The notes under the pieces: generated by a model
What the model was told of the DNA's origin: nothing
Database searches by the model: none
The model's input: the letters and a program-made list of their open reading frames with translations, nothing else
Part shown: positions 9,477 to 26,204 of the stretch, piece after piece
How the letters are laid out: each line of letters starts with the position of its first letter
How positions within the stretch are numbered: position 1 is the stretch's first letter
Position numbers and translations under genes: made by a program
Assembly: GCA_963829655.1 (NCBI GenBank)
Contig: CAWHJG010000002.1
Coordinates: 5,330,786 to 5,394,785 of the forward strand
Reading direction: 5' to 3'
Length of the DNA stretch: 64,000 nucleotides
Origin: Pirellulales bacterium
GTDB taxonomy: Bacteria > Planctomycetota > Planctomycetia > Pirellulales > JALHPA01

Positions 9477-10273
9477 GTGCGACCGGAGTCTGTCATTGTG
9501 GTAGTGGACGAGCGCCGATATCGCTTGCTGGAACTCATTAGAGCGAAAGGGTTTGCGTCGTTGCCGGAGCTGATGGAGGAGCTGGAAGTTTCCGAGTCCA
9601 CCGTCCGACGGGACTTGGACTACCTGGAAGTGAGCGGGACTGCCAAGCGAACGCATGGAGGAGTCTTCTACACGGGTGCCAGCCCCAAACTGCCGCACTT
9701 TGAGGAGCGCGAGCCCGCGAACTGGGAGCGAAAGCGGGCGATCGCCGAGCGTGCGGCCGAGCTCATTCAGAACGGTGACACGGTCTTGCTGGACGGTGGA
9801 ACAACGACCTACGAAGTGGCGCAGATCTTGGTCGGCCGGTCGTTGCAGGTGGTAACCAACTCGCTGCCGGTGGCGAACCTTTTCGCCTCGCACAGTAATA
9901 CGGACTTAGTGTTGTTGGGCGGCTACATCTACCCGCGAACTGGTGTGGCCTTGGGCCCCTACGCGAACGAGATGCTGGCTCACCTGAATGTGCACAAGAC
10001 CGTGCTCAGCGTCGCGGGGATCAACGAGCGGGGCTTTTACAACAGCAATCTGCTGCTGGTGGAAACCGAGCGGGCGATGATGCGCCAGCCGACGAAGTGA
10101 TCGTGGTAGCCGACAGCACGAAGTTCGGTCGCCGGAGCCTGGCGCATCTGGCGGCGCTCGGCGATGCGCATTGCATGGTCGTAGACGACGGGATTAGCGA
10201 GGAGTGGAAGGGCAAAGTGGAAGAAGCGGGCGTGAAACTGTTGATCGCTGCCACGTCAGGGACCGTATCGTAA
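9477..10273 (+). CDS. DeoR/GlpR family transcriptional regulator (one frameshift near 10085)
   Basis: HTH region [37 protein letters not shown] and sugar-binding region [14 protein letters not shown]...VVTNSLPVA. It continues in another frame as [21 protein letters not shown]... Confidence 0.85.
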
Positions 10274-10279
10274 TCGAAC

Positions 10280-10945
10280 ATGGCGACCGCAACATTAGAT
10301 CGAAGGAACGTCGAGCGGATCGTTCGCGAAATCGTACTTGCGCACCATTCCGCGCCCACCGGAACGCCGAAGCTGGTCGTGAGCATTTCGGCCCGGCATT
10401 GCCACCTGACCGACGAGCATGTGGAAATGCTGTTTGGGCAAGGTCAAAAGCTACGGTCCATAAACCGCTGTATCAGGACGGTTTCTTCGCCGCCGAGCAA
10501 ACGGTGATGATCGTCGGCCCGAACAAGCGGCGGATGCTGCCGAGCGTGCGCGTGCTTGGACCGACGCGGCCGGCAAGCCAGGTGGAGCTGGCGTTCACCG
10601 ATGCGATCTCGCTGGGTATCGAAATCCCGGTGCGGCCGAGCGGCAAAATCAGCGGCACGCCGGGTTGCGTGCTGGTCGGCCCGGCGGGCGTCGTCGAACT
10701 GAAGGAAGGCGTGATTCGCGCCGAGCGCCACGTGCACATGCACGACGATCATGCCAAGTTATTACGGCGTGAAGAACGGCGACCGGATGAGCCTGCGAAT
10801 CGAATCGACGTGCACGACGGTGTTCGAAGACCTGCTCGTGCGGGCAGACGCGACGAGCAAGCTCGAAGTGCACATCGATACCGACGAAGGCAACGCGGCG
10901 GATTTGGATCACGCGACGAAGGTGGAGTTGCTCAAGCAACGGTAA
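10280..10945 (+). CDS. pduL: PduL-type phosphate acyltransferase (two frameshifts)
   Basis: Contains [22 protein letters not shown], then [38 protein letters not shown]...ERHVHMH, then [14 protein letters not shown]...[23 protein letters not shown]. Confidence 0.85.
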
Positions 10946-11013
10946 GTGTATTTCATAGTCCATGACTGCGACCGAGTTCCGTCGCAGCGATTCCTTAACC
11001 CCGGAGAGCACCC

Positions 11014-11343
11014 ATGGCGAAACAGATGGAAGCGCTCGGCATGATCGAGACCAAGGGCTTTATCGCCCTGGTCGAGGCCAGCGACGCAATGATGAAGGCC
11101 GCGAACGTCGATTTTCTCGGCTGGGACAAAGTCGGCAGCGGGCTGGTGACGGCGTTTGTCACCGGCGACGTGGCCGCGGTGAAGGCCGCGACCGACGCCG
11201 GCGCGACCGCGGCCGGCCGCATCGGCGAGGTCGTCAGCGTGCAGGTCATTCCCCGCCCGCACGAAGAACTTGACGTGGTGTTGCCGGTCGGCCGCAAGAG
11301 CGGCGCGAAGAGGCGCAAGACTGAATCGCGGACGTGTCTTTGA
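11014..11343 (+). CDS. BMC-H shell protein (Pfam00936-type) with a basic C-terminal tail
   Basis: [27 protein letters not shown]...[21 protein letters not shown]...VIPRPHEEL, followed by the tail [18 protein letters not shown]. Confidence 0.9.
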
Positions 11344-11376
11344 ACCCTAAACCCTGAACCCTGAACAGTAAACCCT
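11342..11376. repeat. Degenerate tandem heptamers (R)AACCCT x5 between the two BMC-H genes
   Basis: gaaccct aaaccct gaaccct gaacagt aaaccct, starting within the stop codon of the first BMC-H gene. Confidence 0.85.
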
Positions 11377-11380
11377 CACT

Positions 11381-11650
11381 ATGGCTACAGCAATTGGATT
11401 GATTGAAACGAAGGGCCTTGTGGCCCTGGTCGAAGCCACCGACGCGATGGCCAAGGCGGCCAACGTGCAGATCGTCAAGCGAGTGTCGATCGGCGGCGGT
11501 CTGGTGACGACGGTCGTCACCGGCGACGTCGGCAGCGTCCGCGCCGCGGTTGAGGCCGGCGCACAGGCGGCGCAGCAGATCGGCGAGCTCGTCGGCAGCC
11601 ACATCATTCCGCGGCCGGCGGAAGGTTTGGCCGCAGCGTACTTTTCCTAG
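11381..11650 (+). CDS. BMC-H shell protein
   Basis: AIGLIETKGLVALVEATDAMAKAANV...GLVTTVVTGDVGSVRAAVEAG...IIPRP. Confidence 0.9.
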   Translation: MATAIGLIETKGLVALVEATDAMAKAANVQIVKRVSIGGGLVTTVVTGDVGSVRAAVEAGAQAAQQIGELVGSHIIPRPAEGLAAAYFS

Positions 11651-11697
11651 TCTTCTGGTAAACCGATCTCCTTCGACAACCGTTGATTCCGGCGATC

Positions 11698-12890
<1,193 letters not shown>

Positions 12891-12894
12891 ACGC

Positions 12895-13208
12895 ATGTTT
12901 GTCGCCAAAGTCACCGGTTCGGTTGTCGCCACGCAAAAGGTGGAGGCGATGACCGGCCACAAGCTGCTGGTGGTCGAGCCGTATCGCCTCGATCCGCAAG
13001 CGCGCAAGGGCCTGGTCACGACCGGGCGCACGTTTGTCGCCGTCGATACCGTCGGCGCGGGCGAGGGCGAGTTCGTGCTGATCACGCAAGGCTCGAGCGC
13101 CCGCCTGACGCCGGAAACCAAGAACCTGCCGATCGACGCGGTGATCATCGGAATTATCGACGCGGTGCAAATTGATCGGAAGCGAAGTGTTCAAAACAGT
13201 CCAAATGA
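12895..13208 (+). CDS. BMC-P (EutN/CcmL) vertex protein; C-terminus reconstructed across two indels
   Basis: MFVAKVTGSVVATQKVEAMTGHKLLVVEP...VDTVGAGEGEFVLITQGSSAR...IDAVIIGIIDAV. The printed 149-aa ORF extension is the out-of-frame aldehyde dehydrogenase N-terminus. Confidence 0.75.
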
Positions 13209-14660
13209 GCGAACCAACGATGCAAGCCACCGAACAACTCATCAAGAACGTCGTCGAACAAGTGCTCAAGCAGCTTGGGCCAGCGCGCCCACGCGTCGAA
13301 TGGTCACAAGACGAGCGGCCGCAATGGCGTGTTCCACGATGTGAACGAGGCCGTTGAAGCCGCGACCGTGGCGTTCGAGCAGCTTAGCGAGCGGACCATC
13401 GACGAGCGCAAGCGGATCATCGACCACATCCGCCGCATCTCCATCGACCAGTGCGTCGAGCTGGGCACGATGGAGATGGAAGAGACCAAGATCGGCCGGC
13501 TGGAGCACAAGATCGAGAAGCTCAAGACGCTCGGCGAGCGCACGCCGGGCGTCGAGTTCTTGCGAAGCGAAGTCTTCAGCGGCGATCACGGCCTGGCCGT
13601 GATCGAGCACGCCCCGTTCGGCGTGATCGTGGCCATCACGCCGGTCACGCATTCGCTGCCGACGATCACCGGCAACGCGATCAACATGATCGCCGGCGGC
13701 AACACGGTCGTCGTCAACCCGCATCCCAGCGGCAAGCGCGTCGCGGCCGAAGGCGTGCGGCGGTTCAACGAGGCGATCCATCGCGACCTCGGCATCGACA
13801 ACCTGATCTGCGTGATCGCCGAGCCGACGCTGGAAACGGCCGATCAGCTCTTCAAGCACCGCGGCATGCGGCTGATCTGCGTCACCGGCGGCCCGGCCGT
13901 GGCCCGCGCGGCGCTGCAATCGAGCAAGCGGGCGATCGTCGCCGGTCCGGGCAATCCGCCGGTCGTCGTCGATGAGACGGCCGATCTCGATCGCGCCGCG
14001 CGGTCGATCATTCAGGGCGGATCGTACGACAACAACCTGCTCTGCATCGCCGAGAAGGAGGTGTTTGTCGTCGGCCAAGGTGTTCGACGACATGATGCAG
14101 GCGATGGAGCGGGCCGGCGCGGTGCGGCTCAATGACCGCGAAGTCGAGGCGCTGACCAAGAAGGCGATCGTGAAAGTCGGCGAAGGCGAGCACAAGCACG
14201 ACGCGCCGTGCAAGGACTTTCTCGGCCAGGACGCGGCGGTGCTCGCGCGAGCGGCCGGCAAGAACGTTTCACCGCAAGACCGAACTGCTGTTCGGCGAGA
14301 CCGACGAGAGCAACCCGTTCGTGCCGGTCGAGCAGATGATGCCGTTCGTTCCGTTCGTGAAGTGCCGCGACGTGGACGAAGCGATCGACAAGGCCAAGCA
14401 GTACGAGCACGGCTTCCGCCACACGGCGATCATCCACAGCAACAACGTGCGGAACATGACCAAGATGGGCCGCGCGATGGACACGACGCTGTTCGTCAAG
14501 AACGGCCCGTCGCATGGCGGCGCTCGGCCTCGGCGGCGAAGGATACCTGTCGTTCTCGATCGCCACGCCGACCGGCGAAGGCGTGACGACGCCGCTGACG
14601 TTCACGCGCGAGCGGCGCTGCTCGCTGATCGACGATTTGCGGATCATTGGAAAACCATAA
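13205..14660 (+). CDS. CoA-acylating aldehyde dehydrogenase (PduP/EutE-like) with an N-terminal encapsulation-peptide-like helix; 4 frameshifts
   Basis: N-terminus [25 protein letters not shown], then [13 protein letters not shown]...[16 protein letters not shown]...VVVNPHPSG...[11 protein letters not shown]...[15 protein letters not shown]...[12 protein letters not shown]...MPFVPFVKC...HTAIIHSNN...PTGEGVTTP. Confidence 0.85.
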
Positions 14661-14689
14661 CGCGGAAAATAACGACGGCATTTGCGACC

Positions 14690-14947
14690 ATGCAGCTCGG
14701 TGAAGTAATTGGAACGGCGACCGCCACGGTAAAGCATCCATCGATGAATGGATGGAAGCTGCTGGTCGTGCAGCCGTTCCTGGTCGATGGCCGCACGGTG
14801 GACGGCGACCCTGTGTTGGCGATCGACCACCTGGGCGCGGGCCGCGGCGAGCGCGTGATTATCACCAGCGACGGCGCCGGTACACGAGCATTGCTCGGGA
14901 CCGACGCGACGCCGGTTCGCTGGAGCGTGCTGGGAATCGCAGATTAG
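14690..14947 (+). CDS. BMC-P (EutN/CcmL) vertex protein
   Basis: [29 protein letters not shown]...[19 protein letters not shown]...RWSVLGIAD. It sits inside ORF 14321-14947, whose upstream part is frameshifted aldehyde dehydrogenase. Confidence 0.85.
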
Positions 14948-14956
14948 GAGACGTGT

Positions 14957-15238
14957 ATGCGGATCGGCAAGGTAATTGGAACCGTATCGCTGAGTCGCTC
15001 TCATCCGACGATGCAGGGCGGCGCGGCTATCCGCCTGGCCGTGCCGCTGTCGCTTGCCAACCTGCGCGGCGACTCATCGGACGAGGCCGAGGAACTTGTG
15101 GTGTACGACGAACTTGGCGCTGGAATTGGCAGCTTGATCGCCATCAGCGAGGGGGGCGAAGCGGCCCAACCGTTTCGGCCGAACATGAAGCCGGTTGATG
15201 CATACAACGCCGCGATCCTCGATCGCATCGATCTCTAA
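14957..15238 (+). CDS. BMC-P (EutN/CcmL) vertex protein
   Basis: MRIGKVIGTVSLSRSHPTMQGGAAIRLAVP...YDELGAGIGSLIAISEGGEAA...VDAYNAAILDRIDL. Confidence 0.85.
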   Translation: MRIGKVIGTVSLSRSHPTMQGGAAIRLAVPLSLANLRGDSSDEAEELVVYDELGAGIGSLIAISEGGEAAQPFRPNMKPVDAYNAAILDRIDL

Positions 15239-15269
15239 CGCAATACATCACACGACAATTCACAACATC

Positions 15270-16178
15270 ATGCAACTTCATCAAATCAAAGAAGAAATCT
15301 GCGACATCGGCCGCCGGATCTATGCCAAGGGCTTTGCCGCCGGCAACGACGGCAACATCAGTTATCGCCTCGGCGAGAACCAGGTGCTCTGCACGCCGAC
15401 GATGATCTGCAAGGGTTTTATCAAGCCCGCCGATCTTTGCATCGTCGATATGGAGGGCAATCAGGTCGCCGGCCAGAAAAAGCGAACCAGCGAAATCCGA
15501 CTGCACCTGGCGATCATGAAGGCCCGGCCGGAGATCAAGAGCGTCGTCCATTGCCACCCGCCGCATGCCACGGCGTTTGCGGTCGCTCGCGAGCCGATTC
15601 CGCAGTGCGTGCTGCCCGAGGTGGAGGTGTTTCTCGGCGACGTGCCGATCACGAAATACGAAACGCCCGGCGACCAGGAATTCGCCGACACGGTGCTGCC
15701 GTTCGTGCACAAGGCAAACGTGATCATCCTCGCGAACCACGGCACGGTGAGCTTACGGCGACACGGTCGAGAAGGCGTACTGGTGGACCGAGATTCTCGA
15801 CGCGTATTGCCGAATTCTGATGCTCGCGCGCGACCTCGGCCGAGTGACGTACTTCAACGAGCGCGAAAGCACGCGAGTTATTGGACCTCAAGAGCAAAGT
15901 GGGGCTACACCGATCCGCGGCTGGCGCAGGGCATGGAGAACTGCGACATCTGCGCGAACGACATCTTCCGCGACAGTTGGCAGCAGTCGGGCGTCGAGCG
16001 GCAAGGCGTTTGAGCCGCCCGCGGCGATGGGCGATCGCGCAAGTCAGAGGGACGCGTGGCCACGGCGTTGCCTACTAGCAACGGCAAACCGAGCGACGCT
16101 GGATCGTCCGGCGGCGTCGATCAGGAAGCGCTGATTCAGGCAATCACGGACCGAGTGATGGCGGCGCTTGCGAAGTGA
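15270..16178 (+). CDS. Class II aldolase/adducin-family aldolase (fuculose/rhamnulose-phosphate aldolase-like), with a C-terminal encapsulation-peptide-like extension beyond an in-frame TGA
   Basis: FAAGNDGNISYRL, TSEIRLHLAIM, VVHCHPPHATAF and VIILANHGTVS, with 3 frameshifts at 15750-15900. A stop lies at 16011-16013, and the same frame then stays open for 54 more codons ending ...SSGGVDQEALIQAITDRVMAALAK (stop 16176-16178). Confidence 0.75.
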
Positions 16179-16212
16179 CGCGATCACGGTTTTATCACAC
16201 CGGCTGAAACGC

Positions 16213-17157
16213 ATGAAAGTCAGCATCATCGGCGGCGGCGGATTGGTCGGCTCTTGCACGGGTTTTGCCCTGCAAGCCGGCGGGATCGTGCGCGAGATTG
16301 TGCTGATCGACGCCAACGCCGAATTGGCGGCGGGGCAAGCGCTCGATCTGTTGCACGGCAGCTCGCTTGTGGCCGATCAGATGATCCGCTCGGGCGGGTA
16401 CGACGAGATACCGGCGAGCGATGTGATCTGCATCACCGCCGGCCTGCGGCGAAAGCCCGACGAAAGCCGGCTGGATCTGATCAATCGCAACGTCGATCTG
16501 TTCCTCGGCATTCTTGAGCGAAATTCAGAAAGCGGGCACCAAGCCAGGCGCAATCATCGTCGTCGTCTCGAACCCGGTCGACGTGCTCACTTACCTCGCC
16601 GCGCAGCGACTCGACCTTCCGCCGTCGCAAGTCATCGGCCTGGGCACACAACTCGACACGCTTCGTTTCCGCAGCCTGATCGCCGAGAAACTTGGCGCGC
16701 CGCCGACGCAAGTGTCGGCCGTGATCCTCGGCGAACACGGCGACAGCATGGTGCCGATCTGGTCGAGCGCGACGGTCGGCGGCCTGCCGCTGGAGAAATA
16801 TCCCGGCTGGTCGATCAACACTGCCAACGAAGTGTTCAACCGCACGAAGGGCTCGGGCGCGGAAGTCATCAAGAAGAAGGGGGGGCCGGCTTTGCCGTCG
16901 GCCTGGCGATCAAGGAAGTCATCGAAGCGATCGCGCTCGATCGCAATGCCTGCTGCCGGTTTCCAGCGTGCAAAACGGCTGCTACGGTCTGCGCGACGTG
17001 TCGATCTCGGTGCCGACCGTCGTCGGTCGCAAAGGCGTTGTCGCGACGCGCGAGATCGAGCTTTGGCCGCAGCGAAGCTGCAAGGGCTTCGCCAGAGCGC
17101 CAAGTGTTGCGACAGACGATCGATACGGTCCTCGCGCGGATTGGAAAGGCAAGCTGA
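16213..17157 (+). CDS. L-lactate/malate dehydrogenase family oxidoreductase, about 5 frameshifts
   Basis: MKVSIIGGGGLVGS...EIVLIDAN, ICITAGLRRKPDESRLDL, IVVVSNPVDVLTY, VIGLGTQLDTLRF, VILGEHGDSMVP and GVVATREIELW lie across alternating frames. Confidence 0.8.
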   Translation: MKVSIIGGGGLVGSCTGFALQAGGIVREIVLIDANAELAAGQALDLLHGSSLVADQMIRSGGYDEIPASDVICITAGLRRKPDESRLDLINRNVDLFLGILERNSESGHQARRNHRRRLEPGRRAHLPRRAATRPSAVASHRPGHTTRHASFPQPDRRETWRAADASVGRDPRRTRRQHGADLVERDGRRPAAGEISRLVDQHCQRSVQPHEGLGRGSHQEEGGAGFAVGLAIKEVIEAIALDRNACCRFPACKTAATVCATCRSRCRPSSVAKALSRRARSSFGRSEAARASPERQVLRQTIDTVLARIGKAS

Positions 17158-17170
17158 CGGTTCGGCCGCA

Positions 17171-18451
17171 ATGCAAAAATCTCTCGATCGCAAAACTCGC
17201 CAACATTCACGCCGATCCATCGGGCGCGAAGGACTTCATCCTCGCCGACGCCAAGGACGCCGACATGGCGTTTGGCATCGGCGCACCGGGCCAGTCGCCC
17301 GAGACGCATGCCGGCGAGCTGCGGTTCCGGACGCTGGTCGGACTACCGCGAGCAGATTCGTCAGATCGTCGAGCAAGGGCTTGTCGATATCATGCTGATG
17401 TCGCGCGAGCACCAACGACGTGCTTGCGCACCAGGAGCGGCTGTTTGAGGCCAGCCACGTCACGCCGGCCGCCCGCGCGAACGACGCGACCGACATCTTC
17501 GCGATCCGCGGCAACCGGTACATCGACCAGCCCGCGCGGCCGCACCGCACGGCGCTGTTGGACCACATTCAATGCGGCCACGTGGCGTGTGACGAAGCGG
17601 AGCGCCGACGCGGAACGAACCTTGGGTTGTACAGCGTCACGTTCAACAATCGGCTCGACGACGACCTGCAAACACTGGAAGAATATCGCCGCTTCCGCGA
17701 GGAGGCCGAGAGCAAGGGTTTTCGGCACTTCCTCGAGGTATTTGACCCGAACTCGCCGTGCGACCTGCCGCAGGACAAAGTTCCGGCGTTTATCAACGAT
17801 CAGATTGCTCGCACGCTCGCGGGTGTGGCTTCTGCCGCGCGGCCGGTGTTTTTGAAGATCGTTTATCACGGGCCGAAGGCGATGGAGGAGTTGGTTGCGT
17901 ATGACCCGCACCTCGTCGTTGGAATTCTCGGTGGCAGTGCGGGGACGACGTACGACGCGTTCAAGCTGATTGCCGAGGCGCAGAAGTACGGCGCTCGCGC
18001 GGCGCTGTTCGGCCGGAAGATCAATCAGGCAGAGTGCCAGCTTGCGTTTGTGCAGTTCCTGCGGCTGATCGTCGATCGCGAGATTTCGCCGGAAGAGGCG
18101 GTGCGTGCTTATCACGCGGTGTTGGAACGCCTTCAGATCAAGCCGCGCCGGAAACTCGAAGACGATTTGGCGTTACAGACCGGTGTGATGAGCTATGGCG
18201 GCGGTTCGAGCGTTGTTGTGCCGGCCGCAATACCTGGCAATCCGCAAAAAACGGATTCCTCGCACTCGTGCGGATGCAGTAGCCCGAAACCGGAGGAGTG
18301 CCACTGCAAGCATGAGAAACCTGCCACGGCGGCGGCGGCCAATTCGCAGTCGGCTACGCACCAGAATTCGCGTCCCGACTTCTCAAAGATGACGCGCGCC
18401 GAAAAGCTCGCCTGGAACAAGGCCGAGCGGGATCGCATCTTTGGGCAGTGA
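17171..18451 (+). CDS. Aldolase-like TIM-barrel protein (DeoC/FbaB/LacD-like) with a Cys/His-rich C-terminal tail; specific function unknown
   Basis: Contains ADAKDADMAFGI, LGLYSVTFNN, RHFLEVFDPN, FLKIVYHGP and VVGILGGSAGTTYDAFKL...GARAALFGRKINQAE, which resembles the class I aldolase GA.G...GR.I.Q end. The tail is SHSCGCSSPKPEECHCKHEKP. There are 3 frameshifts in the first 250 bp and none after. Confidence 0.45.
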
Positions 18452-18455
18452 TCGC

Positions 18456-19560
18456 TCACTCGCCACAGGTCTCGGCCAACTCGCGCAGATACGCGAGAGC
18501 TTCCTCTAATTCGCTCGCCGGCACGCCCGGCTGCCGCCCCAAACGGTCGCACTTGCTCAAAAGCAGAAGCTCTTCAAAACTTTCGTTTGCCGCCAGCCGC
18601 TGCCGCGCCCGCGCGCAAGCGAGCCCTGGTGAAGCTCGTGCCCCAGCATGTGATTTTCGATTAACCAGTGCGTTCGCTCCGTGATATAACCATTGAGCGC
18701 ATCCAAACCCGCGGCGATATGGTCTTCCGGGTCAATCGCCTTTCCCACGTCGTGCAACAGAGCCGCAAGCAAGAACTCCTCGTCGTACGGCAGCTCGTCG
18801 CGCGCAAGTCGAACACTTGCAGGCTGTGATACAGCGCCTCGCCCTCCGGATGCCACTTGGGATTTTGTTTCACATTCTCCAGCGGCAAGAGCAGCATTTC
18901 GTAGATCTGAAACCGATCGACCTTGTTCTCGGCCTCCAACATTTCCTGATCGAGATCGATTCCGGGATACTCGTTCCGCAGCAGTTGCTCGAGCTCGCGC
19001 ACGCTCGCGCGCTCGATCGGCTTGCCGGTGATCGAGCTCTTGAACACAAAGTGCGCCAGGTTGGCCGCGTAGATCGTCAGCTCGAAGTTAAACCGGTCTC
19101 GCACGTGCACGTGCGTAAAGACGCGCTCCTCGCCGTGCTTGCGGACGCGCTTTCGCTCGAGATCGAACACCATTCCTTCGGCCTCCAGCGCCGAGGTCAC
19201 CGCCTCACTGCTGTCGGCGAACAGGTGGATATCGATATCCGATCCGGCGCGCACGTGACCGGTCATCGTGCTGCCGATTAACCGCGGCCGAAACACGGCG
19301 AGAATCCGCATTAGCCGCAGCGCGTCGAGCCGCATCTCGCGGAGGCGGTCCAGCCGGGCGTTGCCTTCATAAAGCCGGGCAAACGACTGGATCTGGTCGC
19401 GGATTTCCGCGTTGCTGGGCAAGTCGGCCGGCTTCACCCAGCCGCCGCAGATGCGTTTTCCGGCCTTGAGCTTGGCCCGGTAATATTCAGACTCCTGCCG
19501 CCCGTACATGAGCCGCGCGGCCTCGAAGGCAATCTGCCTCCGCAGTTTGTCGTTCGACAT
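18456..19560 (-). CDS. Nucleotidyltransferase-domain + HD-domain protein (2 frameshifts)
   Basis: The NTase-like part is IGSTMTGHVRAGSDIDIHLF. The HD part is KWHPEGEALYHSLQVF...LLAALLHDVGKAIDPEDH. The C-terminus ...LAYLRELAETCGE was reconstructed in a third frame. Confidence 0.65.
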
Positions 19561-19681
19561 GCTTGTGGTGCGCCGATATTAGCCATTCGCGCGGCGCCAG
19601 GCTGACACGATTATACTCAGCGCAGAAAGAAAAACATCGCACGTTCCTTGGCCGCCGCGGTGATATCGGGCTGCCGGCTGG

Positions 19682-25643: not shown

Positions 25644-26204
25644 ATGACGCTACCGGTGCGCGCTCGTCGTTTACTTCCCCGCGGTTTTACGCTGATTGAA
25701 TTACTGGTTGTGATTGGCATCATCGGCATCCTGGTCGCGGCCCTGTTACCCGCCATCAACTATTCGCGCGCTGCCGCGCGGCGCGTGCAATGCGCGAGCA
25801 ACGTGCATCAGATCGGCGTGGCACTCGATAATTTCCTGACCGCAAAGAACGGTGGAAAATATCCCGACGTTGCCCAATTGCCGAGCGTTGTGCCTTTCCG
25901 GCCAAGCCTGGTGAAGGTGCTCGCGCCGTTCATCGAAGACAATCAAGCGGTATTTCTCTGTCCTGAAGATGAGAAGTTCTTTCCCGTCGAAGGACTGAGC
26001 TACGAGTATCGCAACAGCCGGCTGGCCAATAAGAACCGCAAGCAGGCGCTAAGGCGATCGAACGGCGAGCAGGTCAGCAGCACGCGAATGATCCTTCTCT
26101 ACGATTTTGAGTCGTTCCATGGACCCGAAGGCGAGCCAGGCGCACGAAACTACCTGTTTGCCGACGGTCATGTGGACAGCGAGGTCCCGGAGTTCAATTT
26201 TTAA
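25644..26204 (+). CDS. Short prepilin-type N-terminal methylation-motif protein (DUF1559-like)
   Basis: [37 protein letters not shown] near the start and ...[12 protein letters not shown] near the end. Confidence 0.8.

Follow-up and report, generated by a model that had tools for sequence, protein, structure and literature searches.

An in-frame TGA in a microcompartment class II aldolase gene of a Pirellulales bacterium is most probably created by single-base assembly indels

A class II aldolase gene within a microcompartment locus

The stretch of DNA analysed here, referred to below as the window, comprises 64,000 nucleotides from a Pirellulales bacterium. On its forward strand, at 15270-16178, it carries a whole class II aldolase gene that is written in three reading frames, as seen from its PF00596 domain, from orthologs and from DNA alignment. 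Neighbouring genes on the same strand encode DeoR, the PduL phosphotransacylase (PTAC; PF06130, from 10204), BMC-H (PF00936, 11381-11647), acetate kinase (PF00871, from 12191), three BMC-P proteins (PF03319; from 12895, 14690-14944 and 14957-15235) and an aldehyde dehydrogenase (PF00171, from 13275), with the domain assignments made by Pfam. A class II aldolase is the signature enzyme of the PVM-type microcompartment (PMC4594438, PMC8217296), and the locus around the window gene has the corresponding content of shell genes and core enzymes (BMC-H, three BMC-P, aldehyde dehydrogenase and PduL). Judged by its sequence, the gene is a standard PVM (Planctomycetes/Verrucomicrobia-type) microcompartment class II aldolase and as such a typical representative of an already known type. 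Among solved structures, aldolases and L-fuculose-phosphate aldolases come closest. As the window protein stays below all NCBIfam equivalog cut-offs, including those of the FucA and RhaD models, no substrate is assigned by these models.

Two further observations concern the shell genes. The first BMC-P ORF (12895-13344) has 149 codons, with the EutN/CcmL domain covering residues 1-89 only, and its excess length is consistent with a run-on from the same kind of indel error that is described below for the aldolase. In the same-genus genome G001, about nine or ten other contigs carry look-alikes (36-50 bases, 84-89% identical) of the C-rich spacer between the two BMC-H genes (11341-11388). Because of these copies elsewhere, the spacer appears to be a short, dispersed repeat or a motif of low complexity and not an operon-specific element. 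Outside the locus, an ORF of 186 residues with a prepilin-type N-terminus lies on the forward strand at 25644-26204, where no tRNA is present. The first ~140 bases of this ORF match many contigs of two related genomes. It belongs to a large paralogous family typical of Planctomycetota, which explains the scattered DNA matches.

The aldolase gene is distributed over three reading frames

The preliminary description of this DNA had reported a TGA at 16011-16013, followed by 54 open codons up to a second TGA at 16176-16178. Translation in the frame of ATG 15270 confirmed these letters: the 54-codon stretch translates as AARGDGRSRKSEGRVATALPTSNGKPSDAGSSGGVDQEALIQAITDRVMAALAK, and the +1 frame across 16003-16050 gives KAFEPPAAMGDRASQ. 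The length of the open stretch is not significant against all stop-to-stop stretches of the window (G+C content 60.7%), 26% of which reach at least 54 codons. The tail is therefore taken as real because of homology and not because of its openness. The sequence ahead of the TGA had also been treated as a single aldolase frame. The stop does lie in the frame of ATG 15270, but the gene switches frames upstream of it: this frame is the true one only at 15270-15754 and 15897-16001, and the other two frames are used in between.

Aligned to the same-genus ortholog, the gene resolves into six pieces (A to F), which follow each other in the frame order 0, +1, +2, 0, +1, 0 and align in order without any base being changed or any residue being lost at the junctions. 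Read in its proper frame, none of the six pieces contains a stop codon. Indels were called from a DNA alignment of the window gene with four close orthologs. Piece A (15270-15754), in the frame of the ATG, encodes residues 1-161 of the catalytic domain and is identical to the same-genus ortholog at 145 of 161 positions. PF00596 matches it at 15270-15752 over profile positions 1-159 of 183 (E 1.2e-42, 146 bits), and the remainder of the domain sits in piece B, in another frame. At approximately 15755 the window has one base more than all four aligned orthologs, and the protein continues in the next frame as GDTVEKAYWWTEILDAYCRILMLARDLGRVTYFNE; piece B (15757-15861, frame +1) shares 32 of 35 residues with positions 163-197 of the same-genus ortholog. 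A second extra base, at approximately 15863, leads into piece C (15866-15892, frame +2), in which KARELLDLK is identical to the orthologs in nine of nine residues. A third one, at approximately 15894, leads back into the ATG frame for piece D (15897-16001, KWGYTDPRLAQGMENCDICANDIFRDSWQQSGVER), which is identical to residues 209-243 of the same-genus ortholog at 29 of 35 positions.

The last two frame changes flank the reported stop. One extra base at approximately 16002 (within 15999-16003) shifts the gene into piece E (16003-16041, frame +1), with GVER passing into KAFEPP without a missing residue, and owing to this change the downstream TGA falls into the reading frame of piece D. Piece E (KAFEPPAAMGDRA) is the true frame across the supposed stop; it is identical to the same-genus RAFEPPPPMGARA at 9 of 13 residues, and its motif is kept in all 19 orthologs described below. 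One base is missing at approximately 16042-16044, which restores the ATG frame, as MGDRA x SEGR in the window and MGARARIEGR are of equal length. Piece F, with 33 of 47 residues identical to the same-genus ortholog, begins with a poorly conserved linker rich in Gly, Ser, Pro and Ala (16044-16121, SEGRVATALPTSNGKPSDAGSSGGVD), variable among the 19 orthologs and also apparent by AlphaFold2, and continues into a C-terminal helix (16122-16172, QEALIQAITDRVMAALA). The true stop codon of the gene is the TGA at 16176-16178; the orthologs stop at the same place or at most 3-4 codons later in the alignment. The aldolase thus contains five single-base indels, four extra bases and one missing base, which are seen only in the window and in none of the four aligned orthologs.

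Orthologs are continuous across the reported stop

A best match with 65-91% identity is present in 39 of 40 related genomes, and the ortholog set used here consists of the genes extracted from the 19 loci that were fetched out of these 40 genomes. All 19 orthologs are single open frames of 281-328 codons, and none of them stops at the position corresponding to 16011. Alignment of PVM orthologs through this point, which the preliminary description had suggested as a check, showed every one of the 19 to be continuous there. From the NCDICAND motif on, the orthologs read ...FRDSWxxxGVxR(K/R)AF(E/D)xPP..., then a linker that differs greatly between them in length and sequence, and then a conserved DQEALIQAITDRVMAAL-like helix, which stands at the C-terminus of 19 of 19 proteins. 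In the alignment, the counterpart of the bridge KAFEPPAAMGDRA in the relatives is the conserved (K/R)AFEPPPPMG. The orthologs offer no match for either QGV just before the TGA or AARGDGRSRK after it, but they match the +1 frame perfectly. AARGDGRSRK (16014-16043), corresponding to about the first ten residues of the tail, is out-of-frame text, and real protein within the tail is restricted to 16044-16175 (SEGRV...ALAK). In the true frame, 16009-16014 reads ttt gag and encodes Phe-Glu within the conserved AFEPP motif, so that the reported TGA is composed of the third base of the Phe codon (16009-16011) and the first two bases of the Glu codon (16012-16014). The ortholog alignment shows the arrangement that the preliminary description had taken as its default, two indels that compensate each other and are bridged by the +1 frame AFEPPAAMGDRASQ. 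From these alignments, the in-frame TGA appears to be an artefact of two single-base assembly errors and no real feature, read as a stop because the sequence gains a base near 16002 and loses one near 16042-16044.

Between the aldolase domain and the variable linker, an extension of ~45 residues (15897-16030) is strongly conserved in all 19 orthologs. Its consensus, WGYTDxRLxPGMENCDICAND(V/I)FRxSWxxxGVxRxAFxxPP, includes a CxxC pair. A survey of encapsulation peptides from 2015 reported 5.5% Cys in the aldolase linker (PMC4594438), and it seems that this survey counts the conserved extension as 'linker'. Metal binding, oligomer contact or shell contact are perhaps candidate roles of the extension.

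The tail ends in a conserved C-terminal helix

The C-terminal helix is seen in all 19 orthologs, in AlphaFold2 and in the literature. A single-sequence AlphaFold2 prediction of 16044-16175 placed a helix at residues 27-43 of 44, corresponding to QEALIQAITDRVMAALA, with a core pLDDT of about 95, and showed the first 26 residues without secondary structure and at lower confidence. The helix is near-invariant among the 19 orthologs and the linker before it is not conserved; relative to the same-genus ortholog, 16 of 17 helix residues are identical and the preceding linker has freely diverged. Retention of the helix while the linker diverges indicates continuing selection on the helix. The description of this helix as amphipathic held in one respect: five bulky aliphatic residues (L/I/V) lie inside a 120 degree arc of the helical wheel, an arrangement found in 3% of shuffles. 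It did not hold for the Eisenberg hydrophobic moment, which is not above that of shuffled controls (36-61% of shuffles of the 17- and 19-residue peptides reach it) because Ala and Met occupy the polar side.

A C-terminal extension of ~17 residues with the properties of an encapsulation peptide was reported for 21 of 23 BMC-associated class II aldolases, with a linker of 23-81 residues between the aldolase domain and the encapsulation peptide (PMC4594438). Position, conservation and literature support a reading of the tail as a linker followed by a putative encapsulation-peptide helix, and on this point the preliminary description agrees with the orthologs, the AlphaFold2 helix and the published description. 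This targeting helix is a real and conserved feature that earlier literature has described.

Frame breaks recur across the assembly

The assembly (G000) consists of 3 contigs with 6.3 Mb, yet has a marker completeness of 79%. Few contigs combined with low marker completeness typically point to a long-read assembly that was insufficiently polished. At C2:671943-679831, on the same contig as the window and 4.7 Mb away from it, rpoB comes in 3 pieces and contains an internal TGA (about 2-3 indels in 3.7 kb), and rpoC comes in 8 pieces and contains TAG as well as TGA internally (about 7 indels in 4.3 kb). Each of the two genes is one open frame in the relative G003; in the same-genus genome G001, rpoB is one open frame and the rpoC match is only partial. 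As a cell could not live with rpoB and rpoC broken in this way, these indels are to be placed in the assembly and not in the organism.

Within the window, the genes for DeoR, PduL, acetate kinase and aldehyde dehydrogenase, as well as an LDH-like gene and the gene following it, show 1-4 frame switches each compared with the intact genes of G001 and G002, with aldehyde dehydrogenase divided into five frame segments. The same number of switches, 1-4, applies to a minus-strand gene at 18459-19575. Most of the longer genes checked at 9477-19575 are frame-broken in the window and intact in relatives, and the indel load of the microcompartment locus is roughly 2 per kilobase. The density in the aldolase gene, 5 in 0.9 kb, exceeds that of rpoB and rpoC and is at the high end, but it is not out of line with the locus. 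Most frame shifts in the examples from this genome are in the extra-base direction. Four of the five aldolase indels are insertions outside long homopolymers, which is not the commonest nanopore error pattern. Each kilobase of the genes examined in this assembly holds roughly one to five indels of a single base.

Discussion

Our analysis suggests that the window very probably contains one continuous class II aldolase gene with a linker and a ~17-residue helix, in which five single-base assembly indels create the stop. Indels 4 (near 16002) and 5 (near 16042-16044) would put about 40 bases out of frame, and the T and GA that belong to the Phe and Glu codons of AFEPP would then read as a stop. 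The organism most likely makes one polypeptide of about 300 residues, as inferred from the 19 intact orthologs. Published work on this enzyme class suggests that the C-terminal helix would dock the aldolase in the compartment lumen, beside the aldehyde dehydrogenase and PduL inside the shell. According to the PVM model in the literature, the encapsulated aldolase would cleave a deoxy-sugar phosphate (fuculose or rhamnulose phosphate) to lactaldehyde.

Strong, if indirect, evidence indicates that the indels of the aldolase arose in the assembly and are not real mutations. Real indels would make the aldolase a pseudogene, perhaps along with the entire microcompartment locus, in keeping with five frame-breaking indels in 909 bases and with breaks in most of the longer locus genes that were checked. 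However, the essential rpoB and rpoC genes are broken alike far away on the contig, which would be intolerable for a living cell. Moreover, the aldolase pieces are free of in-frame stops, are 69-100% identical to the same-genus ortholog and keep the invariant motifs; such high identity and motif retention would be unexpected had decay proceeded far enough to produce five indels. We thus regard a pseudogene as very unlikely.

Two other readings take the TGA at face value. A genuine stop at 16011, followed by the decaying, untranslated remnant of a former tail, was among the possibilities raised in the preliminary description and agrees with the literal sequence. It is extremely improbable, as none of the 19 orthologs stops there, the bridge is conserved when read in the +1 frame, and the helix has remained almost identical to that of the same-genus ortholog under continuing selection while the linker diverged. 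Programmed readthrough of the TGA, by which one gene would yield a free aldolase core as well as a longer, encapsulated form, would draw on the in-frame TGA and the open tail, the only features that speak for it. This TGA lies outside the true frame, being the ttT-GAg of AFEPP, its flanking residues QGV and AARGDGRSRK are unmatched in orthologs that the +1 frame matches, the stop occurs at this position in none of the 19 orthologs, and TGA is the ordinary terminator of the same gene at 16176. The proposal of readthrough with two isoforms is therefore dropped, its probability being negligible, and we see no basis for two aldolase isoforms. Practically no credence attaches to the more general idea that the printed sequence is correct, with a real TGA before the tail and low-level readthrough or frameshifting that splits the enzyme between cytosol and compartment. 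Recoding of TGA or an alternative genetic code was also considered and rejected, as the aldolase itself ends on TGA and the internal stops of rpoB and rpoC, located in frame-shifted segments, are TAG as well as TGA.

With assembly errors as the most probable source of the stop, in-frame stops, odd extensions, "hidden" N-termini and gene fusions in the window should be presumed to be artefacts pending a check against relatives or reads, and frame-based oddities anywhere else in this genome are equally suspect. The real biology at this locus is that of a PVM-type microcompartment aldolase with a targeting helix, which has already been described, and the locus adds one more member to a family of hundreds of known loci.

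The likeness to programmed readthrough or selenocysteine-type recoding of TGA is only superficial, consisting of a TGA that is followed by an open frame; unlike in those systems, the TGA of the window is neither in the true frame nor conserved in orthologs. The E. coli L-fuculose-1-phosphate aldolase FucA (PDB 1FUA and relatives) is of the same fold family (E 7e-13 over residues 4-160). Unlike the window protein, FucA, with 215 residues, has no C-terminal extension or encapsulation peptide. With the class II aldolases of PVM-type microcompartments (Aussignargues et al. 2015, PMC4594438; Sutter et al. 2021, PMC8217296), the window gene shares the domain, the locus content and the terminal helix of ~17 residues. 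Compared with the linkers in PMC4594438, that of the window is within the range of 23-81 residues if everything after the catalytic domain is counted, as the survey appears to do. Relative to these published PVM aldolases, nothing biological differs, and the only difference is the five single-base indels in this assembly.
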